Positions 45,254-63,972 of a stretch of 64,000 nt of DNA are shown here, piece after piece. Both the position numbers and the translations under genes were made by a program. This DNA comes from a virus. Each line of letters starts with the position of its first letter. Positions within the stretch are counted from its first letter, which is position 1. Where the stretch lies: IMG/VR virus record IMGVR_UViG_3300027541_000132, one strand, 5' to 3'. The notes beneath the pieces were generated by a model. It saw only the letters and a program-made list of their open reading frames with translations. It did not search any database and was not told the origin of the DNA.

Positions 45254-45276
45254 TTAGTGGGCAGATTATGGTGTTA

Positions 45277-45964: not shown

Positions 45965-45977
45965 ATAACTTTATAGG

Positions 45978-46093: not shown

Positions 46094-46301
46094 ATTTATA
46101 AAGTGTCTAGCCACTCCCACCACAGGAGCCCTAAACCGAGCTGTTACTCTGTCCACTAGCCTTTCCATTTAGACGGTGCTGAGGTCCGCCTTTGTGATTT
46201 CTCAAGTCGCTTTAAACAAGCCTTGCGGTAGATCCAATGCACCGAGCCATTAAGGTGTAGCAATTACCTAACTCTATCACGCTGAGTTAACGCGGGGTCT
46301 G

Positions 46302-46874: not shown

Positions 46875-46940
46875 TTGTTTTTCCTTTAATGTTTCTATTA
46901 TACAATCTTTTAAATCTAAATCAATGCCTTTTGGCAAAAC

Positions 46941-47016
46941 TGGAGCGGGAGACGAGGTTCGAACTCGCGACATTTACCTTGGCAAGGTAATGCTCTACCA
47001 ACTGAGCTACTCCCGC
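46941..47016 (-). tRNA. tRNA-Gly (GCC)
   Basis: CCA encoded, acceptor GCGGGAG/CTCCCGC, anticodon loop TTGCCAA. Confidence 0.8.
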
Positions 47017-47064
47017 ATATGAAGAACCTAAGGCAAAGTTTATAACTTATCCAAAGGCCATATA

Positions 47065-47140
47065 TGGTACACGGTACGGGAATCGAACCCGTCTTACTGA
47101 CGTGAAAGGCCAGTGTCCTAAACCGATAGACGAACCGTGC
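47065..47140 (-). tRNA. tRNA-Glu (TTC)
   Basis: CCA encoded, T-arm ACGGG/AATCGAA/CCCGT, anticodon loop CTTTCAC. Confidence 0.7.
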
Positions 47141-47146
47141 ATTACT

Positions 47147-47222
47147 TGGCTCCCCAGGGTGGGATCGAACCACCGACACCCTGATTAACAGTCAGGTGCT
47201 ACTACCGCTGAGCTACTAGGGA
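47147..47222 (-). tRNA. tRNA-Asn (GTT)
   Basis: CCA encoded, anticodon stem CCTGA/TCAGG, loop CTGTTAA. Confidence 0.8.
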
Positions 47223-47229
47223 ATAAACT

Positions 47230-47304
47230 TGGTACCTGGTGACAGTTTCGAACTGCCGACCCTCTCGGTGTAAACGAGACGCTCTACCACTGAGCTAACC
47301 AGGC
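47230..47304 (-). tRNA. tRNA-Val (TAC)
   Basis: CCA encoded, anticodon stem TCTCG/CGAGA, loop TTTACAC. Confidence 0.8.
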
Positions 47305-47314
47305 AAACTAACAT

Positions 47315-47391
<77 letters not shown>

Positions 47392-47396
47392 AATGA

Positions 47397-47472
47397 TGGA
47401 GCGGGAGGCGAGAGTTGAACTCGTCTATTTCAGTTTGGAAGACTGACGTGTAACCACAAACACTTCACCCGC
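47397..47472 (-). tRNA. tRNA-Gly (TCC)
   Basis: CCA encoded, anticodon stem TCAGT/ACTGA, loop CTTCCAA. Confidence 0.75.
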
Positions 47473-47478
47473 ATATTT

Positions 47479-47563
47479 TGGTGCCCCAGGAGAGACTCGA
47501 ACTCTCACGGCTCTCGCCACTGGCTTCTAAGACCAGCGTGTCTACCATTCCACCACCAGGGCA
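47479..47563 (-). tRNA. tRNA-Leu (TAG), type II
   Basis: 85 nt with a long variable arm, CCA encoded, anticodon loop CTTAGAA. Confidence 0.8.
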
Positions 47564-48367
47564 TTAACTGACAATACTATTTAAGTATTCCTGAATTGTC
47601 GTTGCAATTTTTTCTTGCACAGACAATTTAATTTTTGCATTCTCACCATTAGCACTCATATACTGTTTTCCGTATTCAGTACAATCTATACCAGTGTGCA
47701 TAAACTCTTTAAAAATTTCTGAGTTGTCAGGATTAGGATCTCCAAACCTAACAGTCGTCCATTTAATATTTTGAGAATCTAAAAACTTAATTAACATATT
47801 GTAACCATTTCTATGTCTACGAATATGCCAATCTTTGCTTTGACTTTTTTGAAAAGCAATACCGTTTAATCGCTTTTTATGAACTTCAATTGGATATCTA
47901 TCTGGATTCCATTCTCCGTCTACATAATTTTCACGTTCAAATACATATCGTTGATTGTTATATTTGAAACTGTGTGCTATATGACTAAACGTGTAATCTG
48001 TAACTAATACATGATCCGGTTTAGGATTCTCTGCTAGGTACTGTTTTAATCTTTTGTGATGACCTATAAAATGTCCACCGTTAATAGATATATTAACTAC
48101 ATTGGAAACATTTAAGAAATTAGGCCATGCGGCTTTTTGTTCTTCTTCCCATAGATAATGCCAAACAACATTTTCCATATTGCCATTGGGCATAGGTGTT
48201 GTAACATTGTTTTCTTTTCTATGTTTTAGATACCATTTAAAAACACTTCTAAAATCATTATGGAAACGTAGACTCCAAGTCCTCGGAGCATCGTCGTTGA
48301 CTATGTCACCAGCCAAACAATTATTGCCATTACTTTGGCAATCTCCTAAAATTAAAAGTGTTTTCAT
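47564..48367 (-). CDS. SGNH/GDSL-hydrolase-like protein (267 aa) inside the tRNA array
   Basis: N-terminal 'LILGDCQSNGNN' resembles the GDS(L) block I. Confidence 0.5.
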   Translation of the reverse strand: MKTLLILGDCQSNGNNCLAGDIVNDDAPRTWSLRFHNDFRSVFKWYLKHRKENNVTTPMPNGNMENVVWHYLWEEEQKAAWPNFLNVSNVVNISINGGHFIGHHKRLKQYLAENPKPDHVLVTDYTFSHIAHSFKYNNQRYVFERENYVDGEWNPDRYPIEVHKKRLNGIAFQKSQSKDWHIRRHRNGYNMLIKFLDSQNIKWTTVRFGDPNPDNSEIFKEFMHTGIDCTEYGKQYMSANGENAKIKLSVQEKIATTIQEYLNSIVS

Positions 48368-48381
48368 ATTAATAGTTATCT

Positions 48382-48458
48382 TGGCGCACCGTAGGGGACT
48401 TGAACCCCTGGCCTCCGACGTGACAGGCCGGCGCTCTGACCAACTGAGCTAACGGTGC
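48382..48458 (-). tRNA. tRNA-Asp (GTC)
   Basis: CCA encoded, T-arm AGGGG/ACTTGAA/CCCCT, anticodon loop CTGTCAC. Confidence 0.8.
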
Positions 48459-48597
48459 AAATTCTATTCTGAAACACACTAACCAACTACCAGAAGCATT
48501 TATAATGCCGTTATTCGGTTCGAGCTAATGTGTTTTAGAATAGTGCTAACGCTGAGATTATACGTTAGCCAATAGTGCCTCTAGCATTATAGTCAGC

Positions 48598-48827
48598 CTT
48601 GCGAGCCAACCTTCTCTAGACATCCACATAAGCCATTACTGTACCTATGTCCACTATCAGCATCGCCGTTTTTAAAGACAGGCAGTAGTCTTGTCGCCAT
48701 ATGCTATTCTACGCTATCTACTCCGTTGACCTTGCGAGCCATTCAGCGGCGCTAACCACTTACGAAACTTCCAGCATAAACAGATTTCACCTTGCGAGCT
48801 ACGTCTGACTCGATTACCTTGCGGCTC
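48598..48827. repeat. Four copies of CCTTGCGrGC motif in an ORF-free island
   Basis: CCTTGCGAGC at 48598, 48731 and 48791, and CCTTGCGGCT at 48818. Related CCTTGCGG is seen at 45551, 46221 and 49213. Confidence 0.6.
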
Positions 48828-48876
48828 GAGTATTAGATGCTTTTCACATATGACCGAGGCAGTCTTTGCATTTTAT

Positions 48877-48949
48877 AATCGATAGTTGGGATCGAACCAA
48901 CAGTCCATTGCTTAAGAGGCAATTGCGTTACCATTACGCTATATCAAAC
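48877..48949 (-). tRNA. tRNA-Lys (CTT)-like, no encoded CCA, U1·U72
   Basis: T-arm GTTGG/GATCGAA/CCAAC, anticodon stem ATTGC/GCAAT, loop CTCTTAA. The acceptor stem's terminal pair is mismatched. Confidence 0.55.
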
Positions 48950-49598
48950 CTACCGCGATGAGCTGCCTCTGTTGCTCAATAACCTTTTGGATTACTGAAT
49001 ACAACTCACCACATACCTTTTGTCTCGCGGACTACTCAGTGATATTTCACGATCAATGTCCTGCATCAAAACAGTCCACTAACCATTAATATTGCATACA
49101 AGCCCTTAGGAGCGACCCCTTGGACAAATACACTACCCTTTCTCATACCAATTCGCAAGTTGGTTTTGTTAGGAAGTCAGCACCACCCGTTACTTTTCAT
49201 GCACCCTGGTTCCCTTGCGGGCCAGTCGATACACATTCTTTCCCTAACACTTGCTTCATTGTTACATCCACCGGTCTTCTCAGTGAACGCTACCTCGCGG
49301 TAGTGAGCAGGCTTGTTTACATGAACCATTACTGGCGGAGTTGCGTAGGCTTACCTCCTTTGGGTTGATCACTCAACTTATTCTTCGTCAACGGCGAACC
49401 GCCAACAGGATAATAAACTACCCTTAAATTTTTACCATTAAAAAATAACATTACACCCTATGGGATGAAACGTATTTCTGAGTGGAGTTCGATTCTCCTC
49501 ATAAGCCATTGTTCACGGTTTTCTCAGAAGGGTAAGATGGCCTTATCCTTCATAAGTCTATGCGTCCATAGACGATACCCGTCAATGCTATTTCTTAA

Positions 49599-49684
49599 TG
49601 GTGGATGCGGCTGGAGTCGAACCAGCAGTGCCGTAAGGCGGCGGATTTACAGTCCACTGGGGTTACCAATTTTCCTACACATCC
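49599..49684 (-). tRNA. tRNA-Tyr (GTA), type II
   Basis: 86 nt, CCA encoded, T-arm GCTGG/AGTCGAA/CCAGC, anticodon loop CTGTAAA. Confidence 0.75.
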
Positions 49685-49771
49685 ATATCTGCTTGAAATT
49701 TTTAAAGAACTAGGTTAATTTCTTAACTAGTCTCTATTGTATATGAACTTTAGAAACTAGTCAAGACATTT

Positions 49772-49866
49772 TGGCAGTGAGTAAGGGATTCGAACCCTTG
49801 ATCCCCGTTTTTGCAGGAATGCCTTCTTAGCAGGAAGGTGCCTTCGACCAGCTCGGCCAACTCACT
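49772..49866 (-). tRNA. tRNA-Ser (GCT), type II
   Basis: 95 nt, CCA encoded, anticodon stem CCTTC/GAAGG, loop CTGCTAA. Confidence 0.75.
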
Positions 49867-49910
49867 ATATTTGTATTATACGATCAACTGTTAAACAAGT
49901 CAACACCTTT

Positions 49911-50000
49911 TGGCCGAAGCGGTGAGATTCGAACTCACGGACCCTTTCGGATCGTCTGTTTTCAAGACAGGTGCAATAAACCGGACTCTGCCACGCTTCG
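49911..50000 (-). tRNA. tRNA-Ser (TGA), type II
   Basis: 90 nt, CCA encoded, anticodon loop CTTGAAA. Confidence 0.7.
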
Positions 50001-50046
50001 TTGTTTTACTTGTATAATTCGTTGTAGATAGAATCTGCTACAAATG

Positions 50047-50124
50047 TGGTACCCCTGCTCCGATTCGAACGGAGAGAACTTCTCCTTTTGAGAGAGACGA
50101 CTTTACCAATTTGTCCACAGGGGT
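50047..50124 (-). tRNA. Type-I tRNA with anticodon CAA (Leu-family anticodon, short variable arm)
   Basis: CCA encoded, acceptor ACCCCTG/CAGGGGT, T-arm CTCCG/ATTCGAA/CGGAG, anticodon loop CTCAAAA. Confidence 0.55.
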
Positions 50125-50129
50125 ATATC

Positions 50130-50203
50130 TGGTGCTCAAGGAAAGAATCGAACTTTCGATTGTGTCGTACCAAGACACTGGTATACCATTTACCTACAAG
50201 AGC
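50130..50203 (-). tRNA. tRNA-Thr (GGT), acceptor stem with U·U at 5-68 and 6-67
   Basis: CCA encoded, anticodon stem GTGTC/GACAC, loop TTGGTAC. Confidence 0.65.
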
Positions 50204-50205
50204 CT

Positions 50206-50277
50206 TGGCGCCTCTGAGTAGATTCGAACTACTATAACCTGGTTTAGAAGACCTGGCACTGCTCCATCAGCAGAGGC
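50206..50277 (-). tRNA. tRNA-Arg (TCT)
   Basis: CCA encoded, anticodon loop CTTCTAA, one A·A in the anticodon stem. Confidence 0.65.
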
Positions 50278-50278
50278 A

Positions 50279-50355
50279 TGGTACCCTTGGTTGGATTCGA
50301 ACCTACACACAACGGATTTTAAATCCATTCGCATTACCAATTAGCGTACAAGGGC
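50279..50355 (-). tRNA. Type-I tRNA with anticodon TAA (Leu-family anticodon, short variable arm)
   Basis: CCA encoded, anticodon stem ATGGA/TCCGT, loop TTTAAAA, 5-nt variable loop. Confidence 0.55.
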
Positions 50356-50362
50356 ATAATTA

Positions 50363-50438
50363 TGGTGCCGCCCCTTGGGATCGAACCAAGTTCCTCGGTG
50401 CTTCAAACCGGTGCAATGACCACATTTGCTAAAGCGGC
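50363..50438 (-). tRNA. tRNA-Phe (GAA)
   Basis: CCA encoded, T-arm CTTGG/GATCGAA/CCAAG, anticodon loop TTGAAGC. Confidence 0.7.
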
Positions 50439-50442
50439 GATA

Positions 50443-50519
50443 TTTGGGGTGAAGCCGGGAATCGAACCCTGCCTTACTGTTTCACAGACAGCCGTGCGGA
50501 CCACTACACTAGCAACACC
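50443..50519 (-). tRNA. tRNA-His (GTG)
   Basis: Discriminator C73 and an extra 5' G (G-1) are consistent with His. Anticodon loop CTGTGAA. Two U·U mismatches in the acceptor stem. Confidence 0.65.
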
Positions 50520-50521
50520 AT

Positions 50522-50598
50522 TGGCCGGCCCTGAGAGACTCGAACTCCCAACCTCCAGTTTCGAAGACTGGCACTCTAATCCATTGAGTTAAGGACCG
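50522..50598 (-). tRNA. tRNA-Arg (TCG)
   Basis: CCA encoded, anticodon stem CCAGT/ACTGG, loop CTTCGAA. Confidence 0.75.
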
Positions 50599-50605
50599 TT
50601 AAAAT

Positions 50606-50679
50606 TGGCAGGCCTACCAGGACTCGAACCTGGAACGACTGAGTCAAAGTCAGTTGTGTTACCATTACACCATAGGCCA
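50606..50679 (-). tRNA. tRNA-Gln (TTG)
   Basis: CCA encoded, anticodon stem ACTGA/TCAGT, loop CTTTGAC, U1·U72. Confidence 0.7.
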
Positions 50680-50904
50680 ACAGATTGAATTTGTAAGTAG
50701 TTGCCCCATCGTTATAGCAACCATTCACCCATGTATATAAAGCCGGCTGGGACTCGGTACGTCACTTGGGATACTAGTCCAGTTAGCAACCAATCTGCAG
50801 GGATCTTCCGATCCCCCGGGAGTTGAACCCGTCCCCTTTTACTATTAAGGTAGTTCGAACTTACCTACAATAGCGTGACATTCTCTTGCTGACACTTACA
50901 AAAC

Positions 50905-50979
50905 TTGGTGCCCCAGGATGGAATCGAACCACCACACCCTGCTTACAAAACAGGACCTCTACCACTAAGGATACAAGGG
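50905..50979 (-). tRNA. tRNA-Thr (TGT)
   Basis: CCA encoded, anticodon loop TTTGTAA, U6·U67. Confidence 0.7.
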
Positions 50980-50984
50980 CAAAA

Positions 50985-51062
50985 TTGGTCTCCACGGTAC
51001 GATTCGAACGTACAGCCTCCTGACTCCAGATCAGGCCGTCTACCAGATTGACATTACGCAGA
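50985..51062 (-). tRNA. tRNA with atypical anticodon loop UCUGGAG (34-36 = TGG, C33)
   Basis: CCA encoded, T-arm GTACG/ATTCGAA/CGTAC, perfect anticodon stem CCTGA/TCAGG, but C at position 33. Confidence 0.5.
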
Positions 51063-51072
51063 GATAAAAATA

Positions 51073-51147
51073 ATTGCGACCGAAGGACTCGAACCTTCGC
51101 GGTAATCTAGAATGCCCCGGCAAGGCCGGTTAACCCACCATTGTCGC
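51073..51147 (-). tRNA. tRNA-like with non-canonical anticodon arm (CCGGC-CTT-GCCGG hairpin)
   Basis: T-arm GAAGG/ACTCGAA/CCTTC and acceptor TGCGACC/TGTCGCA, with no CCA. The anticodon region forms a 5-bp/3-nt hairpin instead of a 7-nt loop. Confidence 0.35.
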
Positions 51148-51151
51148 AAAT

Positions 51152-51226
51152 TTGGTGGAGGCCGAGGAAATCGAATCCTTCTAGACATCTTCCTTGCAAG
51201 GGAAGACCGTAGCCCACTACTGCCCC
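51152..51226 (-). tRNA. tRNA-Ala (TGC)
   Basis: CCA encoded, perfect anticodon stem CTTCC/GGAAG, loop CTTGCAA. Confidence 0.7.
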
Positions 51227-51303
51227 CAAATTGGTGTTAGTTTCTATACCACCCATTGAAACTAACAAACATTGAGAGAACATGGATGAACCCACAAGAT
51301 CTC

Positions 51304-51378
51304 TATTTGCTCTGGTATAGCGTACGGGGATCGAACCCGCCTAGTCACCTTGAAAGGGTGATGACCTCCCCAGAAGTC
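51304..51378 (-). tRNA. tRNA-Glu (TTC), second copy
   Basis: CCA encoded, anticodon stem TCACC/GGTGA, loop CTTTCAA. Confidence 0.7.
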
Positions 51379-51384
51379 GAACGC

Positions 51385-51458
51385 TATGTAAATTGGTTCC
51401 TGGACCGAGAATTGAACTCAGAATGACCGGTTATCAGCCGATTGTTATACCATTTAAC
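51385..51458 (-). tRNA. tRNA-Ile (GAT)
   Basis: CCA encoded, anticodon stem ATCGG/CCGGT, loop CTGATAA. Confidence 0.8.
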
Positions 51459-51640
51459 TATCCAGGAATAATACTATACAAAAAGAAACTAACGACAATG
51501 CGCTATGCACCCAGAGTCTATAGTTCCTGGCTGTGGTTAGTTTGTTTTTATACACTACCATATGGAAGCACTCTTATGCCTTTTTCGTCATAAGATGGTG
51601 GCCCGTCCTTACTACTGACGCTATGCGACCAGTTAAGAAT

Positions 51641-51715
51641 GCTTTCATATGGTAGGGGCACAGAGAATCGAACTCTGATTTACGGGTTAAAAGCCCGCTA
51701 CTTTAACCATTAAGT
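51641..51715 (-). tRNA. tRNA-Lys (TTT)
   Basis: CCA encoded, T-arm CAGAG/AATCGAA/CTCTG, anticodon loop CTTTTAA. Confidence 0.75.
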
Positions 51716-51718
51716 TAT

Positions 51719-51794
51719 ACCCCCATATGGTCCCTGCTGTGAGATTCGAACTCACACCTCATTGATTAAGAGTCAAGTGCGCTACCATTGACGC
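51719..51794 (-). tRNA. tRNA-Lys (CTT)
   Basis: CCA encoded, T-arm GTGAG/ATTCGAA/CTCAC, anticodon loop CTCTTAA. Confidence 0.65.
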
Positions 51795-51974
51795 TAAACA
51801 GGGTTGTACGTATTGATTTGATTTTACGTGCCAACCCTAGACCATACGGGAGATCTAGAGTGACACTAACGTTTAGCACGTTTCATGCTACTCTCCTTTT
51901 AATATTTTTTCAAAACTTGATACAACACGAACATTATAACTAACACTACAAGTACTGCCATAATATTCTCCTTA

Positions 51975-52064
51975 TGGTCCCCCGTTGAGGAATCGAACCT
52001 CATCCTGGACCTTATCTAGATTAATCGGTTATAAGCCGACCTGCTCTCCATGAGCTAACGGGGG
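51975..52064 (-). tRNA. Type-II (long variable arm) tRNA with apparent anticodon TAT
   Basis: 90 nt, CCA encoded, acceptor CCCCCGT/ACGGGGG, anticodon stem GTCGG/CCGAT, loop CTTATAA. The anticodon and class combination is unusual. Confidence 0.45.
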
Positions 52065-52072
52065 ATATAACC

Positions 52073-52150
52073 TGGAGCAACGGGTCAGATTTGAACTGAC
52101 GGTTTTACGGATTTGCAATCCGTTGCATTGGGCCTCTCTGCCACCGTTGC
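52073..52150 (-). tRNA. tRNA-Cys (GCA)
   Basis: CCA encoded, anticodon stem ACGGA/TCCGT, loop TTGCAAA. Confidence 0.7.
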
Positions 52151-52155
52151 ATTAT

Positions 52156-52230
52156 TGGCGTACCCCCAGGGACTCGAACCCCGACTAGCAGTTTTGGAGA
52201 CTGTCGTGCTGCCATTAACACTAGGGATAC
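52156..52230 (-). tRNA. tRNA-Trp (CCA)
   Basis: CCA encoded, classic anticodon loop CTCCAAA. Confidence 0.8.
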
Positions 52231-54735: not shown

Positions 54736-55296
54736 TTAGAAACCGTACTTGTAACCAACACTTACTACGTTACTGTTGATATCACCTTCCTGGCGATCAA
54801 ATCCAAGAAAGGCTGTACCATTTTTAGTAACACCGTAGTCAGCACCAATTCTCCAAGTGCGTGTCATGTAGTTGTCGCCACTGGAGAAACCAGTACGATA
54901 ACGATAACCAGCTCTTAGACCAAAACGATCATTAACTGCAATCTTAACACCTGGTTCAACAGAGTAGTAATCGAAACGATTACCAACTTGCCATTTCTCA
55001 CCGACTGCACCGCGAACATATCCGCTTAGTTTGTCTGTAATACCAACTGTTGGAGTAACACCAACTTCTAGTTTACTAGAGTTTGCACCGTTACCATTTG
55101 TGTACATGTTTTCACCTTTTAGGTCAACACCAACATTTGATGCGGCTTGTGTACCGATAGTAAACTCATAACCTTGTTGGTTGGCTCCTGTGCCACGTGG
55201 ATCTTCGAATTTATATTCCAATCCAACTACGTTACCTGCCGCAGAAGCGACACCGGCAACAGCGGCAAACAGAGTTGCAATAACAAATTTTTTCAT
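54736..55296 (-). CDS. Outer-membrane β-barrel protein (OmpW/OmpA-like) with signal peptide
   Basis: Signal peptide 'MKKFVIATLFAAVAGVASA', alternating β-strand pattern, and a C-terminal 'VGYKYGF' aromatic β-signal. Confidence 0.75.
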   Translation of the reverse strand: MKKFVIATLFAAVAGVASAAGNVVGLEYKFEDPRGTGANQQGYEFTIGTQAASNVGVDLKGENMYTNGNGANSSKLEVGVTPTVGITDKLSGYVRGAVGEKWQVGNRFDYYSVEPGVKIAVNDRFGLRAGYRYRTGFSSGDNYMTRTWRIGADYGVTKNGTAFLGFDRQEGDINSNVVSVGYKYGF

Positions 55297-55431
55297 TTTA
55301 AATTTTCCTTATGTGTAAACCGTACGGCAAATTTACATACCTTCCGTACGGCAATTAAAAGCGATTATACTAAATCACTTTGTATAGTATATATAAGTGT
55401 AAATCAGTAGTCAATATATTTTAGTGCCAAA

Positions 55432-55971
55432 TCAACTATATTCAAACGGTGTACTTGGGTGTCCATAGTCGACATGTAAATTGGATCCTTTAGTGTCATC
55501 GTATTGTGTGTAGTACGACTCGTTTGGTTTAACTTCTCTCCAATCATCATACTTGAGTTGGGCGAACGTTACTTGTTTCCTATCCAAAAGATCACAAATA
55601 ATAAATGTACTAGTACATCTACCTTGAATGTATTTCATAGGACCGTGCTTGTATTCGTTAGCCAACAATGCTTTGTGCATTTCGCTATGAGGTCTAAACA
55701 TAATTCTAGTAATACCTAACTTTTGGTTACGTAGTCTAAATTTATCTATTAACGTGAGTTCGGAGATTTGAGCATTGTTTTCATCGTCGACACGTAATAG
55801 TACGTTCTTGACTTTAATGCTACCTTTTGTATGACTGTTGTCTGGTGTTTCCTTGGTGCTCCAAGCAACTGTACAGTCTACGTGATTGACATATAATGTC
55901 TCCCCATGAAATTTTAAGACCCACATAGGTATGGTCTGATCTTCTAAGTGTTTTTTGTTAAAATGGAACAC
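55432..55971 (-). CDS. Hypothetical protein (179 aa)
   Basis: ORF-track entry. Confidence 0.45.
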   Translation of the reverse strand: MFHFNKKHLEDQTIPMWVLKFHGETLYVNHVDCTVAWSTKETPDNSHTKGSIKVKNVLLRVDDENNAQISELTLIDKFRLRNQKLGITRIMFRPHSEMHKALLANEYKHGPMKYIQGRCTSTFIICDLLDRKQVTFAQLKYDDWREVKPNESYYTQYDDTKGSNLHVDYGHPSTPFEYS

Positions 55972-56052
55972 TAGGTCCTTACAAGCATATTCAATCTATT
56001 TCATTTTCGTTTCCTTTAGTTAAAGGGGGACTTTCACCCCCCGTGTTTTTAT

Positions 56053-56811
56053 TTACGCAAATATTTCTAATGCAGTACCGCATTCTGAACAGAACTTAGC
56101 GTGAGCTTTATTCTGCTTGCCGCAAGTTACGCATTTTGGTTTGGCTTTAACTGTCACTGCCTTTTCAACAGGTTTGTTATCTCCCAAGTCGCCTACTAGT
56201 CTCAGCACAATATTGTGTACTGTAGATTCTAGTGCGCCAACTGTGACATGTTGGAATGACTGAGTGGACTTGCTACCTGGAACAGTAATGCCGGTTTCAT
56301 TTTTAAAACTTGCGGCACTTGCTGTTACATTCATACTGTTAAGACTGGCATTGGTAGAGTAAGTAGCACCCATCGGGCTTGCCCAATCTCCTGTACTACC
56401 ACTAATACCCCTAGTAAGAGTAGTTGAGCTCCAAGTAGGAATGTTTAGAATAGGGCGTGGAATTTCAAATTGATATTCAACACGGATTAACCCGTCTTCT
56501 AGTTTGATACCACGTGGACCATCTTCAATTGCACTTGTGCGTTCGATAAACTTAAACTTGTTACCTTCGGAGAGATTGCCGTTTTTAATCCAACGCTCTA
56601 AGTCGACAGTCCGACCCGGGTCAATGACCAATCCGCCAGGGACGACATTCTCTCCGTCGATAAACACATTTACGACAGCACGAGTTGTATTAAGATTTTT
56701 GAGTAAGATACTATATTCGCTAGCGAACGGAATATAGACTGTGTCCTTGAATTCACGGAGCACTTTGCCTTTTGATTTGATAGAGGCTACTAGTTTTTGA
56801 TTATACATCAT
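56053..56811 (-). CDS. Hypothetical protein with C-terminal zinc ribbon (252 aa)
   Basis: C-terminus 'CVTCGKQNKAHAKFCSECG'. Confidence 0.5.
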   Translation of the reverse strand: MMYNQKLVASIKSKGKVLREFKDTVYIPFASEYSILLKNLNTTRAVVNVFIDGENVVPGGLVIDPGRTVDLERWIKNGNLSEGNKFKFIERTSAIEDGPRGIKLEDGLIRVEYQFEIPRPILNIPTWSSTTLTRGISGSTGDWASPMGATYSTNASLNSMNVTASAASFKNETGITVPGSKSTQSFQHVTVGALESTVHNIVLRLVGDLGDNKPVEKAVTVKAKPKCVTCGKQNKAHAKFCSECGTALEIFA

Positions 56812-56890
56812 GGTTCTTCCTTTTTACGGCGTACACTCTAAACGCCTAGTTATTAAAGAGTGTTAGTGTAGGACCACCCTACAAATTTAT

Positions 56891-57115
56891 TTATATCGGC
56901 ACTTCGATCAGTTGAAAAATTCTCCAATCTCTGCGATCAGCCACTTTTTTCTTCTTGTTCTCTTCCTGAACATACTTCAAGAAGCTCTGTGCCTGTTCCA
57001 TAGTACCGTAGAAGATGTCATTACCGTAAGCATAAGTTCCTACCGAGCCGGTTTCGCCTTCCCAGTAATGTCCTACTGCGTAGTTAAACTGTTTTGCTTG
57101 TTTCTTCTTTGCCAT
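56891..57115 (-). CDS. Hypothetical protein (74 aa)
   Basis: ORF-track entry. Confidence 0.4.
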   Translation of the reverse strand: MAKKKQAKQFNYAVGHYWEGETGSVGTYAYGNDIFYGTMEQAQSFLKYVQEENKKKKVADRRDWRIFQLIEVPI

Positions 57116-57332
57116 GATTGTCTTTCATATATGGCGGAATCTTTTCAGATTCTTCTTGTGTCATAAACCGTTGTGGTTCATGTGCCCAATGTGGCATCCA
57201 TGACCAACCCCACGACTTCCAATATTTGGCAACTAAGTTATTAGCGATAAGAATACCGCCTAGGATTATCAAGAATCCTAAAACTGTTAAAACTGATCCG
57301 GCTAAAAATACTGCCGCCTGATCCATATCCAT
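57084..57332 (-). CDS. Small membrane protein (82 aa)
   Basis: Hydrophobic segment 'AVFLAGSVLTVLGFLIILGGILIA'. Confidence 0.45.
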   Translation of the reverse strand: MDMDQAAVFLAGSVLTVLGFLIILGGILIANNLVAKYWKSWGWSWMPHWAHEPQRFMTQEESEKIPPYMKDNHGKEETSKTV

Positions 57333-57353
57333 ACTACTTCTCTTTCTTAAAAA

Positions 57354-57427
57354 TGGTGCGCTAGACAGGAATCGAACCTGCTATCGGGAGTTTAGAAGTC
57401 CCTGCCTATCCATTGAGCTTCAAGCGC
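57354..57427 (-). tRNA. Candidate amber-suppressor tRNA (anticodon CTA), type I
   Basis: CCA encoded, acceptor GCGCTTG/CTAGCGC (U6·U67), T-arm GCAGG/TTCGATT/CCTGT, anticodon arm GGGAC/TTCTAAA/CTCCC (C·C at the loop-closing pair). Positions 34-36 = CUA. Confidence 0.55.
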
Positions 57428-57428
57428 A

Positions 57429-57638
57429 TTATCGTTCCCAAATTGTAGTCATGTTGAGCCAACGTGCTACGGGTTTAACTACCAGCGGAATCATTAAGCA
57501 AAGAATCCAAACCATTTGGATGTATTCTGCTTCTGTAAATTTGTAGGCAATGTTAGCAAAGCCAACTACTAGATAAATGGCGGACAGCCAAAAGAGGTAA
57601 TGTCCGCCACTGCGTTGCCAAAGTAAACGTTTTAACAT
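57429..57638 (-). CDS. Small membrane protein (69 aa)
   Basis: Two hydrophobic helices. Confidence 0.45.
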   Translation of the reverse strand: MLKRLLWQRSGGHYLFWLSAIYLVVGFANIAYKFTEAEYIQMVWILCLMIPLVVKPVARWLNMTTIWER

Positions 57639-57639
57639 A

Positions 57640-58440
57640 TTACTTACCGTTGGTAGTAACAGTAGGAGTTACAACACCGTTGATAACCAAAGTTTGACCT
57701 TTGAAGTTGGCAATAGCATCGGGCAACTTACGCATGGCTTCTGCTTCTGCCTCCGCCTTCAACAATGGAATTGCCATCGGATTGGCCTGCATCGATTCGT
57801 TACGTTTCTTAGCAGTAGCAACTTTGACTTCTTCGGTCTTGTACTCGTTCTTGGCTTTGACCAATTCGTTGGCGCTGGCTACAACAGAGTCTGCAGGCAC
57901 AATGTTACGAATAAGAACTTGTCCAATTACAATAGTACCATCCAACTTTTCTTCAGCCAGTGTACGAGTAACTTGTTCTTTGATTTCAGTTTCCATTGCT
58001 TGACGTGCATCACCCATTTCCAATGCTTCATACTTACGTGCGGCTTTGTAGATAGCATTACGTGAAGCATTAAAGATGTAATTATACATCAAGTAAACAT
58101 CGCCATTATGACTAGCGTGGAATGATTTATTTTTTGTATTATAAATCTCGGCCACTTGTGCTTGATTGATATTATAAGTAACCAACGCATCAAAGTCCTT
58201 CATTGTGCTATTATCTTTAGCCAATGGAGTCATGTCTTCAACTTTGACACTAATTTCCTTAGTTGGGAATGTAAGTACATCGCCGATAATAGTTTGGTTA
58301 AACGAACCAGGAAGCAATTCCTCATTCTTGACCTGCTTGTCAAAACCGACACGGAGACCAACTTCACCAGTTTCGATACGAGTACAACCCGTTGCCAAAA
58401 CTGCGGCGGCAAGAATAGAGAGAGTTAAAATACGCTTCAT
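57640..58440 (-). CDS. SPFH/band-7 domain lipoprotein
   Basis: Lipobox 'LATGC' after the signal sequence. A prohibitin/HflC-like region with an Ala/Glu-rich coiled coil ('KAEAEAEAMRK'). Confidence 0.65.
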   Translation of the reverse strand: MKRILTLSILAAAVLATGCTRIETGEVGLRVGFDKQVKNEELLPGSFNQTIIGDVLTFPTKEISVKVEDMTPLAKDNSTMKDFDALVTYNINQAQVAEIYNTKNKSFHASHNGDVYLMYNYIFNASRNAIYKAARKYEALEMGDARQAMETEIKEQVTRTLAEEKLDGTIVIGQVLIRNIVPADSVVASANELVKAKNEYKTEEVKVATAKKRNESMQANPMAIPLLKAEAEAEAMRKLPDAIANFKGQTLVINGVVTPTVTTNGK

Positions 58441-58622
58441 TGTTTTTCCTTAAAATAAAATTACGATTGCTGTCATCACCATTAGTGCTAACAGTGAAAC
58501 AATTATACTATAGGCCAATGACTTTGTCAATGACCAACGCTCCTTGCCCTCCATTTTCCTCCAGGTAGTAATACCTAAATGGATCAGGACGGCAAGGATT
58601 GCAAAGACTAGCCAAAGTCTAA

Positions 58623-59420
58623 TCATTGTGTTACCTTAAGAGCGGCATCGACTGCGGCCTTAACAGCGGCATCCAACTGCTCTTGTGTGTAGGCTTCATC
58701 CTGGACAGGTGCTTTGAAAGCATCGTCTGGATGTACGCCCAATTCACCAATAACTTCGTAGCGGCAAGCACGACCCTTAGACGCATTGTAGTCAGTAGGA
58801 ATGCTTACAACATCACGTGGATTGATCTTAAGGATCACTGTACGTTCACCACCAAAGTGGTCCAAGTACTCACGTGAGCAGAAGTGCAGACCAGAACTAC
58901 AAGTGTTTTCGGCCTTGTCGTCAACTTGGTTGCGCTCCATTTCAACAATCTGTCCAACAGAGTTATCCATTGTACCACTGTGGCAATCCTTATAGTCCTT
59001 ACGAACTTTCTTGTATGCCAAGAAGTGACCGTCATTGGTAATTGGCAAATTACCCTTTTCCAAAAACTTGTACAGTTCTGTAACAGCACGATGACTTGGG
59101 TTGCTCATCAAGTTCTCCATAAACTGAACCATAGGCTCAATTGGGAAACCATCTTGGTACATAGAAATAATTCTATCTGCCAATGTGTTGTGGAACTCTT
59201 GTCCCTTCCAGTAGAACTTGTCTCCTTGGATAGCGATGTTACCAGCACCATATTCGAGCACAATTTTCTTTGGCTCAATTACTTCCTGTACTGTGTCCCA
59301 GTCACCTGTCTTAATTGCTTCTTTGACTTTCTCATAGGCAATATGAGTAGAAGTAATTGTATGTGGATTGTTGTTAATTACAACAACAATATTTTTGCCT
59401 TGAATCAAATATGGAAACAT
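58623..59420 (-). CDS. rIIB: rIIB protector-from-prophage-induced-early-lysis protein
   Basis: 'LENLMSNPSHRAVTELY...DCHSGTMDNSVG...CSSGLHFCSREY...INPRDVVSIPTDYNASKGRACRYEV' closely parallels T4 rIIB. ATG at 59418-59420, one nt after the rIIA stop. Confidence 0.85.
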   Translation of the reverse strand: MFPYLIQGKNIVVVINNNPHTITSTHIAYEKVKEAIKTGDWDTVQEVIEPKKIVLEYGAGNIAIQGDKFYWKGQEFHNTLADRIISMYQDGFPIEPMVQFMENLMSNPSHRAVTELYKFLEKGNLPITNDGHFLAYKKVRKDYKDCHSGTMDNSVGQIVEMERNQVDDKAENTCSSGLHFCSREYLDHFGGERTVILKINPRDVVSIPTDYNASKGRACRYEVIGELGVHPDDAFKAPVQDEAYTQEQLDAAVKAAVDAALKVTQ

Positions 59421-59421
59421 T

Positions 59422-61584
59422 TTAAACACCTTTCTGTGTGTCAATCAAATTAACGTACTCAGCAACTTCATGATTTGGCGCACTACGCAAGTATGCCAAC
59501 AACGGATAACGCTTACTAATGGTTGCACATTCATCAGTAAACTTCTGCACTTGAGCTTCTGGACTAAAGGTTACACCAGGAGCATAACGATTGCACAAAC
59601 GCTTCAAACTTTGTTCACTGTACTTAATCTTTTCATAGCCCTTGAACTGTTTTACCAATTCAACATACGGACTATTTTTGTTAGTAACATTAAACATGAT
59701 GCTTTCATTATACTGCAACAGGTTGAAATTGTCAACAGCCTGCAATACCAAACTCATAACAAGTTTATTATCAATTGGCTTGCTCAAAACACTAACAATG
59801 TGCTCTTCAATGTTGACCCAATTCTTTTGAGTCTTAATAAACTCAATGTCGCCTTTACGCACACCGTAGATTGTAGTCTTCAAACCAGTTAAACCACAGT
59901 CTTTCAAATCGTTGTAAAACTCTTTGACGTTGCTCATACCATACTTACTTTGAACTTCAAAACCGCTCAAAGGCAAGTAGTAGTAAGTAGTAGCATCATC
60001 AAAACTGTCAGCCTTACCAGCATCACGCCAAACCATTTCGCGTTCACGATAGTAGCCACCTGTGCCACGTTCTTGCAAACACAAGATTGTAACGTTCTTT
60101 GCCAAACCAACTTGACGTTCTTTCTTCGACAACGAACTGGCTTTTACAATACGATCCTCTGGAGGATTAGCAATAGCCTTAAAGAACGCCTTAGTGTTCA
60201 TGACTTTGTCTTTGTTTAATTTATCTAAGACAAAGACTGTAGCACTATTGTCTGGCTTAGTTTCACGATAGTGGAACTTGGCACGTTCAAGGGCACCGAT
60301 ATTGGTATCATTAACGATAAACTGTACACGGTCCTCTACAGTAATGCCCCAGTAGGCAAACATATCGTAATGCCCTTGAGCGTTCTTGTTATCACTGTAT
60401 TGTGTGTCAGCCTTACGGTTAGGATATGCCTTAGTGTGCTTGGCATAGTTAAAACCTCTGATAACGATGTTGTATTTCTTAGCAAGATCTTCAACACCCA
60501 TTTTGAAAGTCTTAGTACCGCCGTAACGGCTGTCATCGAATGTAGACAGGTTAGTGTCTGCTACATACTTCTTAACCGCCGCTTGCCACAAACCATTATG
60601 ATACTTCTTAGTCAAGAAGATAGCACGATCCCACAGGTTAGGAATAGCATCTGCTTCTTTGGCTACGTGAACAGCCAACTGAGCATTTACTGCCTCTAAC
60701 TTGCGCTTGATGGCATCTACAGTCTGAGGAATGTATGACAAACCTTCACGGCTTGCTTGGAAGTCTAATTCGCCAATAGCAAAGTGCATTTCCAAACCAC
60801 AGTTCAACAACAGGCGCAATTCGCCCATAGCCTGTTCTGTGTTAGGAACATCTATAGGATAGGCAATATTGCCCATGATGGCTACAGCACGACGGTGTCC
60901 GTCTGTGTATGAGTGAACGCCTGGAATGATATCCTTAGCATCATATTCTACATCACGGAAACGGAAGTCGCTGACACCGCTGATAACTGGGCGCAGAGCA
61001 AAATAAGTGTAGACATATCGTGCTTCTTCTTGGAACTTACTAAAGTCCCAACGGTCACTGACTGAGAATTTAACTTCGACACCGTCGGGTTCGCTGGTTT
61101 GTTCTTCACCCATCTTGGCAATACTAGGCACACCTGCTTCGTTAATAAAAGCAGAGTAAACACCTTTAACGCCGTCTTTGATTGCGGTTACCGTGAAGTT
61201 ATCTGTATAACTAAAAGGACTCTTAGAACCCAAACCTAATGCGCCGATAAAATCGTTGCTGTTGGTCTTAGTACTTTCAAAGTATGTGGTATAGATGTTT
61301 GTAACTTGTTCGTGGCTCAAACCAGTACCATAGTCACGAATACTAAACCAAGGTTCCAATTGGTTGGGCAAGTGTACATCAAAAGGAGTATCTTGTTTGC
61401 CTGCGGCAGTATGGCTATCTACTGCGTTACAACTCAGTTCACGGATGATAGCACGGATCTTGTTAGCATACAAGCCTGAACTCAAAATGTTAAATGCCTT
61501 AGCAGAGTTGCGAATACGGAACTCGCCCACTTCACTTACATTACTCAAAATTGCTTCGTTTTGCGGAGCATTGTTAATAATCAT
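59422..61584 (-). CDS. rIIA: rIIA protein (GHKL ATPase-domain)
   Basis: 'SNDFIGALGLGSKSPFSYTDNFTVTAI' is near-identical to T4 rIIA. The Bergerat N-box 'IRELSCNAVDS' and G1 box 'IRDYGTGLS' are present. Start at Met 'MIINNAPQ' with an AAAGG RBS. Confidence 0.9.
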   Translation of the reverse strand: MIINNAPQNEAILSNVSEVGEFRIRNSAKAFNILSSGLYANKIRAIIRELSCNAVDSHTAAGKQDTPFDVHLPNQLEPWFSIRDYGTGLSHEQVTNIYTTYFESTKTNSNDFIGALGLGSKSPFSYTDNFTVTAIKDGVKGVYSAFINEAGVPSIAKMGEEQTSEPDGVEVKFSVSDRWDFSKFQEEARYVYTYFALRPVISGVSDFRFRDVEYDAKDIIPGVHSYTDGHRRAVAIMGNIAYPIDVPNTEQAMGELRLLLNCGLEMHFAIGELDFQASREGLSYIPQTVDAIKRKLEAVNAQLAVHVAKEADAIPNLWDRAIFLTKKYHNGLWQAAVKKYVADTNLSTFDDSRYGGTKTFKMGVEDLAKKYNIVIRGFNYAKHTKAYPNRKADTQYSDNKNAQGHYDMFAYWGITVEDRVQFIVNDTNIGALERAKFHYRETKPDNSATVFVLDKLNKDKVMNTKAFFKAIANPPEDRIVKASSLSKKERQVGLAKNVTILCLQERGTGGYYREREMVWRDAGKADSFDDATTYYYLPLSGFEVQSKYGMSNVKEFYNDLKDCGLTGLKTTIYGVRKGDIEFIKTQKNWVNIEEHIVSVLSKPIDNKLVMSLVLQAVDNFNLLQYNESIMFNVTNKNSPYVELVKQFKGYEKIKYSEQSLKRLCNRYAPGVTFSPEAQVQKFTDECATISKRYPLLAYLRSAPNHEVAEYVNLIDTQKGV

Positions 61585-61692
61585 CTTTAGCCTTTCTGCG
61601 CCTAGTTGTTTACTGTATGTGTATATTATAGCAAATGAACTGTGGTCTGTCAACTGTCGATGAGTCCAAAATATGAACCCATCGACACAAGA

Positions 61693-63059: not shown

Positions 63060-63140
63060 GTGATCTTTCTATGAAATAAAACTGCGATACTGTGTATTAT
63101 AGGCTCGGACAGGGCATCTGTCAATGTGTTTGGTAAAATA

Positions 63141-63162
63141 AAAAAGGGCCCGAAGGCCCTTT
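63141..63162. terminator. Rho-independent terminator, second copy of GGGCCCGAAGGCCC hairpin
   Basis: AAAAAAGGGCCCGAAGGCCCTTT, identical to the stem-loop at 54699-54719. A strong T-run follows on the minus strand. Confidence 0.8.
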
Positions 63163-63427
63163 GGTTGTTTGGGTTACAAGGTAAGTCCTACCCCGGAGTT
63201 GCAGTTTCTTAGGCTGCTACTAGACCATTGTCGGCTGTGAAGCCTTCAACAGTGAAGTACTCAAATGTAGATGCGTTTGCATTTACTAGTTTTGCTTGAT
63301 TTACGGTCATCGCCTACCGTGTTGCCGTCTCTACTATCTACCCCTGTCGAAACCATGGCAGGCCCATCATAAAAACACAATACCAAAGTAAATTTACAAT
63401 GAATACCAAAGTAAATTTATGTCCTTA

Positions 63428-63475
63428 TGGTGGACCTGGCGGGAGTCGAACCCGCGTCCAGAAGTCCTTCGCTTT
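63428..63475 (-). ncRNA. tRNA 3'-half-like fragment (T-arm + acceptor + CCA) resembling tmRNA/tRNA 3' end
   Basis: ...GGACGCGGGTTCGACTCCCGCCAGGTCCACCA has a perfect T-arm GCGGG/AGTCGAA/CCCGC. No complementary 5' acceptor strand was found. It lies directly downstream of ORF 63496-63972. Confidence 0.4.
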
Positions 63476-63495
63476 GAAGGGATTACAACAATTCT

Positions 63496-63972
63496 TTAAA
63501 CGCCTGCCTTTGCTAATGTGCCAAATATCCAAGGTTTTGGATCTAAGTCAATTGTCCAAGATGTCGGTTCATTTCTCATATCTTTTTTGTACACAATATT
63601 TATTTGGTCGTGTGTTAGTTTGACTAAGAAGCCGTCTGTTAATTGTTTTAGATTAGCCTTAACTGTTGCGTAATCTACAAAGGCAACAGCGAATGTTCCT
63701 TTAATTTGGACTATCATTAAATGATTAAAAACTTTGTCTAGTGTAGTTCTTTGATTCTTACTTTCGTAAACATTTTTTAATTTAAGACTGATTGTCTTTT
63801 TAGGAGTTCCTGACTTTGCGTAGAACAAAGGTTCGTTGCCAGTTTTAACTTCTACGTCGCCATTGGTCCAATCGGTAAATTTTATATCGTAATCGCGAAC
63901 GTCAGTCCACTCGATGTTCTTTTTATGATTAGATAATTGCATTGCCGCAATAATGAATTTTTCTTTCATCAT
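63496..63972 (-). CDS. Hypothetical protein (158 aa)
   Basis: ORF-track entry. Confidence 0.5.
   Translation of the reverse strand: MMKEKFIIAAMQLSNHKKNIEWTDVRDYDIKFTDWTNGDVEVKTGNEPLFYAKSGTPKKTISLKLKNVYESKNQRTTLDKVFNHLMIVQIKGTFAVAFVDYATVKANLKQLTDGFLVKLTHDQINIVYKKDMRNEPTSWTIDLDPKPWIFGTLAKAGV

Follow-up and report, generated by a model that had tools for sequence, protein, structure and literature searches.

Which codon, and in which gene, is read by a phage amber suppressor tRNA that is encoded in DNA following the standard genetic code? The question is raised by a 64,000-nucleotide (nt) stretch of IMG/VR record IMGVR_UViG_3300027541_000132 (hereafter the window), which derives from an uncultured jumbo-phage-like genome with a G+C content of 41% and encodes a tRNA with the anticodon CUA (tRNA-CUA). 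An initial annotation found the location of this tRNA outside the main tRNA array odd and its role unclear. Here we describe a gene (gene X) 1.36 kb downstream on the same strand, whose third codon is a conserved in-frame TAG and which offers the tRNA a role. Our analyses suggest, with fairly good confidence, that tRNA-CUA is a functional phage amber suppressor dedicated to the UAG at codon 3 of X and gating its translation. That this amber codon is the target of the tRNA we regard as probable, and confidence is lower for any particular purpose of the gate. The elements concerned are as follows.

57354-57427, minus strand: tRNA-CUA, class I, with encoded CCA (ARAGORN, Rfam and a covariance model of its family)
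55432-56004, minus strand: gene X, 190 codons, of which one is an in-frame TAG; stop codon TGA at 55432-55434
56017-56011, minus strand: Shine-Dalgarno motif AAAGGAA of X, followed by a 6-nt gap (56010-56005) and the ATG start codon (56004-56002)
55996-55998, minus strand: in-frame amber TAG, codon 3 of X, with A as the +4 base
56025-56042, minus strand: G+C-rich hairpin GGGGGG-tgaaagt-CCCCC followed by TTTA, between the preceding gene and X

An amber codon at the start of gene X

Gene X had originally been called as 55432-55971 from a GTG start, and reading further upstream reveals its true 5' end, with the sequence ATG AAA TAG ATT GAA TAT GCT TGT AAG GAC. The hairpin ahead of it, which a terminator scan scored as terminator-like on the plus strand only, could be a weak terminator, an attenuator or a processing site. 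The initial annotation had suggested looking for in-frame TAG codons in genes, and a single conserved site was found, codon 3 of X. Indeed, a scan of the window for a Shine-Dalgarno motif and an ATG followed by TAG within 8 codons, with at least 80 open codons thereafter, identified exactly one site, that of X. With the limit relaxed to 10 codons, 69 early-TAG open reading frames (ORFs) were identified in 2.15 Mb of related loci, 60 of them being X, whereas control scans of the same DNA returned 22 cases for TGA and 16 for TAA. Another in-frame TAG, seemingly joining the plus-strand ORFs 15733-15876 and 15877-16233, was discarded as an antisense artefact of the gene at 15630-17537 (minus strand).

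A search of IMG/VR with X identified 49 loci, which together with those collected earlier provided 61 X genes having readable 5' ends. In all 61, an ATG with a Shine-Dalgarno motif 5-10 nt upstream is followed by one to three variable sense codons (eight in one gene) and then by TAG; TAA or TGA never takes its place, and the +4 base is invariably A. Directly after the TAG all 61 continue with the conserved protein sequence IE[YF]ACKD[VI]VFHFNKKHLED. The codons at positions +1 to +8 vary synonymously (ATT/ATA/ATC, GAA/GAG, TAT/TAC, GCT/GCA/GCG, TGT/TGC, AAG/AAA, GAC/GAT) while the amino acids are fixed, which implies that the sequence is translated right after the TAG; purifying selection acts on these codons. 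The earliest alternative in-frame start, at codon +24 or +25 in 14 loci, would drop the residues that are conserved most strongly, including the invariant FHFNK motif.

The residues between the ATG and the TAG differ among X homologues in both number and sequence, and in distant homologues that apparently have no TAG the equivalent position is not conserved. The TAG falls in a non-conserved N-terminal tail of the protein, in which the inserted residue probably does not matter, and such a tolerant position would indicate a regulatory instead of a coding role. Rescue of amber-containing genes, one of the roles that the initial annotation had associated with phage suppressor tRNAs, comes near in spirit to this picture, but the amber codon is no defect here, as it is kept in 61 of 61 homologues.

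The AlphaFold model of X (predicted local distance difference test, pLDDT, 82.9) consists of a beta-rich N-terminal domain and a ferredoxin-like C-terminal domain. No Pfam, PHROG or NCBIfam match was obtained for X. The possibility that X is a PTH2 peptidyl-tRNA hydrolase was rejected, no similarity to PF01981 being found. The X family is small and restricted to phages; it forms 139 representative clusters when grouped at 50% identity, and three architectures occur in it. In some phages the N-terminal domain of X adjoins PTH2 or is translationally coupled with it, and gene context suggests a link of this domain to tRNA or peptidyl-tRNA metabolism. In the phages Atu_ph07 (L144, 70-5517) and Phosso (L146), a gene with the X domain, there fused to an N-terminal helical domain and without TAG, stands amid genes for RnlA RNA ligase, NUDIX, PTH2 and an AAA_33 kinase-metallophosphatase fusion.

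Full-length X proteins with Q at the amber position are found in databases, among them P0001 ('MAQIEYAC...'), P0012 ('MSKQIEYAC...') and many others, the loci concerned including L142 (100-672) and L143 (2938-3513). Insertion of glutamine was nevertheless rejected as a reading of these entries: P0001 and P0012 have TAG in their DNA, and their Q comes from gene calling under genetic code 15. Being a product of code-15 calling on short contigs, the Q gives no evidence for which residue is inserted. In long contigs X is shortened to an internal GTG start, so that the Q form and the GTG form are both misleading.

The suppressor tRNA and its linkage to X

ARAGORN calls the tRNA as 74 nt with the anticodon CTA at position 33, Rfam RF00005 matches 57357-57427 (minus strand) with 38.4 bits against a gathering score of 29 (E-value 1.6e-4 for the whole window), and the family covariance model, R1, gives 77.2 bits. 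The CUA triplet that the initial annotation had placed at positions 34-36, within the loop UUCUAAA, is recovered by both the ARAGORN call and the Infernal alignment, the latter with a 7-nt anticodon loop and no shifted register. The molecule has the features of a canonical elongator tRNA: G18G19 in the D-loop (AAUGGAUA), the T-loop sequence GGUUCGAUUCC, and U33 in an anticodon loop of 7 nt. Its acceptor stem begins with G1-C72, C2-G71 and G3-C70, and the discriminator is A73. The earlier description as a well-formed type-I cloverleaf with encoded CCA thus stands for the class and the CCA, but is too generous for the stems, which contain three non-standard pairs in the Infernal alignment (U6.U67, C13.A22 and C31.C39). 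U6.U67 is private to the window copy, its relatives having A-U or G-C there. Its Rfam score is the second-lowest among the tRNAs of the window, and its single-sequence fold is no better than that of shuffled sequences (z = -0.89). Judged by itself, the window sequence appears to be a fair, not an outstanding tRNA call, and the call still lies far beyond chance.

ARAGORN labels the gene as 'tRNA-Pyl', a consequence of the anticodon alone. Pyrrolysine tRNAs (tRNA-Pyl) are characterized by a 6-bp anticodon stem, a 3-nt variable loop and a small D-loop without G18G19; they also lack the T-psi-C consensus and are expected to be accompanied by pylS and pylBCD genes. This identity was rejected, as the D-loop has GG, the T-loop is canonical, the anticodon stem comprises no more than 5 bp and the variable loop is 4 nt long.

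The 3' half of the tRNA, excluding the anticodon, was used as a seed against IMG/VR. Ten loci were identified, the tRNA carrying CUA in each of them, and no non-suppressor tRNA with the same 3' half was found among the matches. At least 47 distinct family sequences occur in related jumbo-phage contigs, or about 50 when those recognised solely by the covariance model or by eye are counted, and CUA is present in all, in agreement with the amber-suppressor type proposed by the initial annotation. Compensatory changes on both sides affect 13 of 18 consensus stem pairs. The co-varying parts are acceptor positions 4-7 and the D, anticodon and T stems, while hardly any variation is seen at G1-C72, C2-G71, G3-C70 and A73. 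Loops and pairs were compared in 50 sequences, including that of the Rhizobium phage RHph_I1_18 and the two tRNAs of the Xanthomonas jumbo phage XacN1. The loop YU-CUA-A(A/C) is shared by all members, and position 31:39 is non-Watson-Crick in 40 (C.A in 29), U.G in 7 and A-U in 3. An initiator-type tRNA was rejected as well, since the C1xA72 mismatch is absent from all 50 sequences (G1-C72 in 47, G1.U72 in one), 31:39 is never G-C, and a conserved ATG with its Shine-Dalgarno motif precedes the TAG. Comparison across the family indicates that tRNA-CUA is real and under selection.

The family covariance model also recovers three tRNA-CUA genes missed by ARAGORN, in loci L117, L109 and L136, with 71-79 bits and CUCUAAA loops. 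Altogether, ARAGORN misses or calls as tRNA-??? the tRNA-CUA genes at L150 1356-1430, L151 322-398, L117 9879-9953, L109 4165-4239 and L136 9749-9821. The L150 tRNA has an odd T-loop, GGCUCGAUACC, and scores 58.2 bits with the family model; the L151 tRNA has C33 instead of U33 and a weaker score of 42.4 bits.

With regard to aminoacylation, similarity to the other tRNAs of these phages singles out no family: Phe, Leu, Thr, Met, Gly and Arg tRNAs all reach best alignment scores of 27-30, while Gln, with 19.5, ranks among the lowest. The combination of GCG/CGC in the first three acceptor pairs with A73 is common to the phages' tRNA-Leu mainly, and to a few Gly and Val tRNAs. It is not matched by their tRNA-Lys or tRNA-Gln; the latter have TGG/CCT, TGG/CCA, TCG/CGA or AGG/CCC with G73, or TGC/GCA with U73. 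This likeness to tRNA-Leu is suggestive only as to charging identity.

The tRNA and gene X were found together from either side. Starting from the tRNA, with the 3'-half search, X is present in eight of the ten loci; the two exceptions end within ~1 kb of the tRNA, in the direction in which X would be expected. Starting from X, tRNA-CUA is present in 58 of 61 loci (55 by ARAGORN and 3 by the covariance model); the remaining three have less than 200 nt of upstream DNA, one of them ending inside the tRNA. When loci were instead collected through the neighbouring Band7 gene, X and tRNA-CUA occurred together in one of 80 and were both absent from the other 79. The tRNA is on the strand of X in all 59 paired loci and upstream of it in 57. 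Where it is upstream, the spacing between the two is at most 100 nt in 9 loci, 101-600 nt in 17 and up to ~5 kb in 29, and in many relatives the tRNA lies 31-58 nt ahead of the X start codon. These patterns point to a module of tRNA-CUA and X moving together in a variable region of small-gene cassettes. The location that had seemed odd is that of the tRNA beside its target module: it would lie outside the main array because it travels with X.

Recurrence of the design and its genomic setting

The arrangement also appears on a second gene family and in cultured phages. RHph_I1_18 carries an unannotated short X gene of 82 codons, M-S-E-F-M-TAG-N-E-S-C-R-E-V-I-F-H-F-N-K, which ends 11 nt before an annotated 'tRNA-Pyl(cta)'. 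In a 170-kb contig of a metagenome-assembled genome (MAG; L154), tRNA-CUA is followed by ATG ACA CAT TAG and a PTH2 domain (PF01981, 36.3 bits), the stop codon of which overlaps the start of a short X gene without TAG. The IMG/VR locus L155 encodes M-T-H-TAG-PTH2, tRNA-CUA lying 39 nt ahead of the start codon and 48 nt ahead of the TAG, and L156, from a 482-kb IMG/VR contig, encodes M-K-TAG-PTH2, then short X, then tRNA-CUA. PTH2-like genes with an early TAG were likewise found in Cronobacter phage GAP32 (M-A-Q-TAG, annotated as a truncated call from TTG), Ralstonia phage RsoM2USA (M-L-TAG, ATG-TTG-TAG, unannotated), Acinetobacter phage ME3 (M-T-TAG) and Yersinia phage fHe-Yen9-04 (M-S-H-TAG, unannotated). 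The direct Pfam PTH2 score of the GAP32 copy is 17.7 bits, below the threshold of 23, and its assignment was made via BLAST links to clear PTH2 members. A tRNA-CUA lies 3-4 kb downstream in GAP32 and in Pectobacterium phage CBB, and RsoM2USA has been reported to carry one (PMC8504454).

The early-TAG design is not universal among jumbo phages. XacN1 has a PTH2-like domain fused into ORF364 without TAG, K64-1 a PTH2-like gene with a plain start, and L140, a phage with an X-family gene, an ungated PTH2-like gene. In XacN1 (L147, 4979-5137) two tandem tRNA-Sup(CUA) genes lie ~4 kb downstream of a Band7 gene, much as in the window; no X homologue was found in this phage, nor any early-TAG gene within ~5 kb of its suppressors. 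In the Sinorhizobium phages phiM12, phiM7 and phiM19 (H82-H86), 'tRNA-TERM' genes resemble the GAP32 suppressor tRNA.

The window in which tRNA-CUA and X reside has the following further features.

58502-58530, minus strand: putative sigma-70 promoter, TTGACA-17-TATAAT, 12/12 consensus, 5' of the Band7 gene
57640-58440, minus strand: SPFH/Band7 lipoprotein gene (Pfam and PHROG matches)
57429-57638, minus strand: membrane-like ORF of 69 amino acids (aa), its stop codon 1 nt before tRNA-CUA
56053-57332, minus strand: three ORFs of 82 aa, 74 aa and 252 aa between tRNA-CUA and X
58623-61653: rIIA and rIIB (Pfam/PHROG scan)
44574-52230: main tRNA array, 31 tRNAs (ARAGORN)
15630-21332: tail-fibre/baseplate-like genes

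The promoter is likely, from its position and consensus, to start a transcript comprising the Band7 gene, the 69-aa ORF, tRNA-CUA and the genes downstream. The 69-aa ORF and the 82-aa ORF at 57084-57332 both contain hydrophobic, membrane-like segments, in keeping with the small membrane-protein genes that the initial annotation had placed around tRNA-CUA, and the 252-aa ORF ends in a C-terminal zinc ribbon. Judging from spacing across loci, the three ORFs separating tRNA-CUA from X are variable cassettes. Genes for an AAA ATPase (Pfam/PHROG), a DNA ligase and an endonuclease are also present, and one ORF of 3102 aa (2634-11942, minus strand) was assigned no function. The best rIIA match is that of XacN1, with 29.5% identity, and a megablast of window positions 55000-60000 against cultured phages gave no match. 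Related IMG/VR contigs number in the hundreds, the longest reaching 383 kb. The only GTDB genome matches are six MAG contigs placed in unrelated taxa, most likely mis-binned phage DNA.

Overall, ARAGORN identifies 32 tRNA genes and one permuted transfer-messenger RNA (tmRNA) in the window. The array that had initially been counted as 35 tRNAs has 31 by ARAGORN, which found no tRNA-Ala in it, and its distance from tRNA-CUA, given as 5 kb, is 5.1 kb. Several of the RNAs are unusual. A full-length GOLLD RNA (48549-49012, minus strand; Rfam RF02032, 207 bits) lies within the array and encloses tRNA-Lys(CUU) at 48876-48949, for which the ARAGORN span ends in ...GAUUA instead of ...CCA. The permuted two-piece tmRNA (63118-63581, minus strand; ARAGORN, Rfam tmRNA_permuted 138 bits and beta_tmRNA 129 bits) has an unusually long predicted tag, ANASTFEYFTVEGFTADNGLVAA, the tags of relatives being ordinary (ANDESYALAA, ANDSQFALAA, ANDEKFLMAA). 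The tRNA-Ile(UAU) at 51975-52064 (minus strand), like those at L085 6444-6535 and in L141, is 90-92 nt long, with a long extra segment 3' of the anticodon arm, either an insertion or an arm of class-II type, that is kept in relatives. The tRNA-Arg(UCU) at 50206-50277 (minus strand) is 72 nt long with a shortened D-arm, and its anticodon-loop sequence, CUUCUAAAC, includes the UUCUAAA string of the suppressor, read one base earlier. Bacterial tRNA-Leu typically has a long variable arm. The tRNAs with the Leu anticodons CAA and UAA (50047-50124 and 50279-50355, minus strand) are 77-78 nt long and have no such arm, and the Leu tRNA with the UAG anticodon is 84 nt long.

Proposed amber-gated translation and alternative explanations

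Under the model that we favour, ribosomes would initiate at the Shine-Dalgarno motif and AUG of X and meet UAG after two codons. There, either termination by release factor 1 (RF1) would release a dipeptide, or charged tRNA-CUA would be accepted and the conserved 187-residue protein be made. X would consequently be produced only when, and in proportion as, the phage tRNA is transcribed, processed and aminoacylated. With tRNA-CUA upstream on the strand of X, and if the two are co-transcribed, the arrangement would constitute a coherent feed-forward AND gate that suppresses leaky or premature expression and adds delay. A stop at the very start would also make failure cheap, as only a di- to tetrapeptide would be lost, and the inserted residue would fall in a tolerant tail. 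In Escherichia coli, a purine after TAG is a context favouring suppression, and the A at +4 fits such a context.

Several observations weigh against this model. We infer read-through at the TAG of X from comparative genomics alone, charging and decoding by the tRNA being supported indirectly, through the conserved TAG and the purifying selection on the sequence behind it. An efficient suppressor would extend phage proteins whose genes terminate in TAG, and ~6-8% of phage genes do so, without any excess of back-up stops behind them. The window covers 64 kb of a genome probably exceeding 300 kb, and most related loci represent one early-gene neighbourhood, so it is possible that other in-frame TAGs occur elsewhere, for example in capsid or lysis genes. 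The mismatches C13.A22, C31.C39 and U6.U67 could make the window copy of the tRNA less active. Furthermore, 1.36 kb, three ORFs and the G+C-rich hairpin separate tRNA-CUA from X in the window, and their co-transcription there is not assured. Finally, fold searches with X were uninformative and gave no recognisable fold or family, which leaves the purpose of the gate conjectural.

The alternative that survives best, although we consider it unlikely, is that the main job of the tRNA is general read-through of UAG, perturbing host proteins or countering a host defence or an RF1-dependent process, with the early TAG serving as a sensor by which a translation-housekeeping factor is produced according to how much suppression takes place. 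The principle would resemble that of prfB, the gene for release factor 2 (RF2), in which an early in-frame UGA and +1 frameshifting autoregulate the release factor by RF2 activity. The likeness lies in an early in-frame stop acting as a sensor at which a release factor competes with another event; unlike in prfB, the competitor would here be a dedicated tRNA that decodes the stop as its cognate codon, and X is no release factor. The gated genes are indeed linked to translation: PTH2 in L154-L156, where short X overlaps the gated PTH2 stop in L154 and follows PTH2 in L156, and PTH2-like genes in several cultured phages. The N-terminal domain of X stands amid PTH2, RnlA RNA ligase and a kinase-phosphatase gene in Atu_ph07, and a tmRNA is encoded in the window. 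Besides that, the open frames of two to four codons resemble minigenes of the kind that provoke peptidyl-tRNA drop-off, as the bar minigenes of phage lambda do. On the other side, a general read-through should have left a signature of adaptation, of which the unenriched back-up stops after TAG-terminated phage genes show none, and nothing links X to action on tRNA, ribosomes or RF1, its fold searches being uninformative. This explanation shares the read-through step with the gate and is compatible with it. We tentatively propose, giving it somewhat less than even chances, a widespread and so far unrecognised two-part switch in jumbo phages that consists of a private amber suppressor and a single sentinel UAG placed 2-9 codons into a translation-housekeeping gene (X here; PTH2, accompanied or not by a short X gene, elsewhere). 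The sentinel would gauge how the suppressor fares against RF1, or whether the tRNA pool is intact, and set the level of a factor handling peptidyl-tRNA or termination problems. If true, the switch would be nature's counterpart of synthetic amber AND gates and, at the same time, an analogue of the prfB sensor.

Much less probable is partial recoding of the code-15 type, in which the suppressor would serve many TAGs in late, structural or lysis genes outside the window, X being one among them. Phage suppressor tRNAs are strongly tied to the recoding of TAG in late genes (bioRxiv 10.1101/2021.08.26.457843), and most of the genome lies outside the DNA seen. Rare use of TAG as a stop has been proposed as the precondition for recoding, and it is the least frequent stop here (158 of 2093, and 91 of 1457 in long ORFs). 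However, coding coverage under the standard code (code 11) is good, at 0.75-0.95 in the window and ~90 related loci, where the coding gained by reading TAG as sense does not exceed that gained with TGA. Mid-gene TAG junctions are not enriched: TAGs with at least 60 open codons on both sides amount to 2.86 per 1000 TAG trinucleotides in the 2.15 Mb, against 3.61 for TGA and 4.37 for TAA. No in-frame TAG was found in the tail-fibre and baseplate genes of the window or in its 3102-aa ORF. In databases, X on contigs of 187-364 kb has the short standard-code form (178-180 aa), the 'Q' form coming only from contigs of at most 5.4 kb, as would be expected if whole genomes are fitted best by the standard code, and the position of the TAG is fixed and stereotyped, not scattered. 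The standard code thus fits the window and related loci, and within the DNA examined TAG is not generally recoded; the initial annotation had likewise argued against global recoding from the long intact ORFs of the window.

We give still less credence to the view that the ATG, its one to eight codons and the TAG form an upstream mini-ORF, X being made independently of the tRNA by reinitiation or from an AUU start and the tRNA having another role. AUU is a possible weak start codon in bacteria, as in infC, and ATT directly follows the TAG in 45 of 48 unique sequences. The codon at this place is also ATA or ATC, and GTA, AAC, AAG or AAT in the PTH2 and short-X versions, which is the behaviour of a sense codon, and the Shine-Dalgarno spacing suits the ATG and not the codon after the TAG. 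The mini-ORF view leaves unexplained both the constancy of TAG, never TAA or TGA in 61 genes, and the partnership with tRNA-CUA wherever enough DNA is available. A functionless tRNA with a decaying or accidentally mutated anticodon, to which the second-lowest Rfam score in the window, the three non-standard pairs and the shuffle-like fold might point, can practically be dismissed, given that CUA is kept in every family member while the stems co-vary, that no non-suppressor tRNA sharing the 3' half was found in the search with that half, and that the partner TAG is conserved in X.

The dedicated gate that we favour can be compared with several known systems. Genetic code 15 (TAG-to-Gln) has been described in crAss-like, Lak and other phages that carry their own tRNA-CUA (bioRxiv 10.1101/2021.08.26.457843; PMC7886860; PMC9523058). 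As in those phages, a CUA suppressor encoded by the phage in standard-code DNA would allow in-frame TAG to be read during infection, TAG is rare as a stop, and the suppressor has been proposed there, as here, to exert translational control on a subset of genes. In contrast to the tens to hundreds of TAGs scattered in late genes of code-15 phages, a single TAG at codon 3-10 of one gene or operon is involved here, and coding density is no better under code 15. Previous studies of XacN1 and RsoM2USA reported CUA suppressors without identified targets (PMC5852040; PMC8504454), and in XacN1 in-silico read-through of 18 TAG-terminated genes gave none (PMC5852040). These phages are likewise jumbo myoviruses with large tRNA sets and a CUA suppressor, which in XacN1 lies near Band7. 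The two XacN1 suppressors share the family anticodon arm GAGC-CUCUAAA-ACUC with its C31.A39 mismatch, while their acceptor stems differ. Unlike in those reports, a PTH2-like early-TAG gene was found here in RsoM2USA; in XacN1 no gated gene was found.

Reliance of a few specific genes on one specialised tRNA also recalls bldA of Streptomyces, a host gene for tRNA-Leu(UAA) that reads the rare sense codon TTA in many targets. In the present case it is a stop codon that would be read, and the tRNA and its target form a compact, mobile phage module. Closest in design are synthetic circuits. An AND gate made of supD and an amber-bearing T7 RNA polymerase was reportedly built by Anderson et al. in 2007. 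In such circuits output needs both mRNA and tRNA, which cuts leak and sharpens switching. A suppressor-tRNA coherent feed-forward 'leak dampener' was constructed by Ho et al. in 2021 (PMC7969014). The phage arrangement has the same parts list, a suppressor and a target silenced by an amber codon, with the same order (tRNA upstream) and the same strand: all 59 paired loci have the two genes on one strand, 57 of them with the tRNA upstream and 9 with it within 100 nt, and the TAG stands in a variable tail. Unlike the synthetic circuits, the module is natural, conserved and phage-borne, and its co-regulation we infer from position alone.

Phage suppressor tRNAs and TAG recoding are already known, and the searchable literature, the coverage of which is incomplete, yielded no account of an amber gate on a single phage gene. 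What appears new here, as judged from the loci compared, is the restriction to one sentinel codon in one gene or operon, the tight linkage of tRNA and target, and the recurrence of the design in distant jumbo-phage lineages on two gene families. Genes starting with ATG, a few codons and TAG constitute a testable class of targets for orphan suppressors, with candidates at hand for those of GAP32 and RsoM2USA; in ME3 and fHe-Yen9-04 the early-TAG gene alone was read. Such genes escape standard annotation, as in RHph_I1_18, RsoM2USA and fHe-Yen9-04, or are cut short by it, as in GAP32, and pipelines that switch to code 15 for short contigs place a spurious Q where X has its amber codon. In the module, nature would have arrived at a circuit that was independently constructed in synthetic biology. 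The module would also reduce stop-codon reassignment to its minimum, a single codon of a single gene, and thereby bear on the origin of full recoding.

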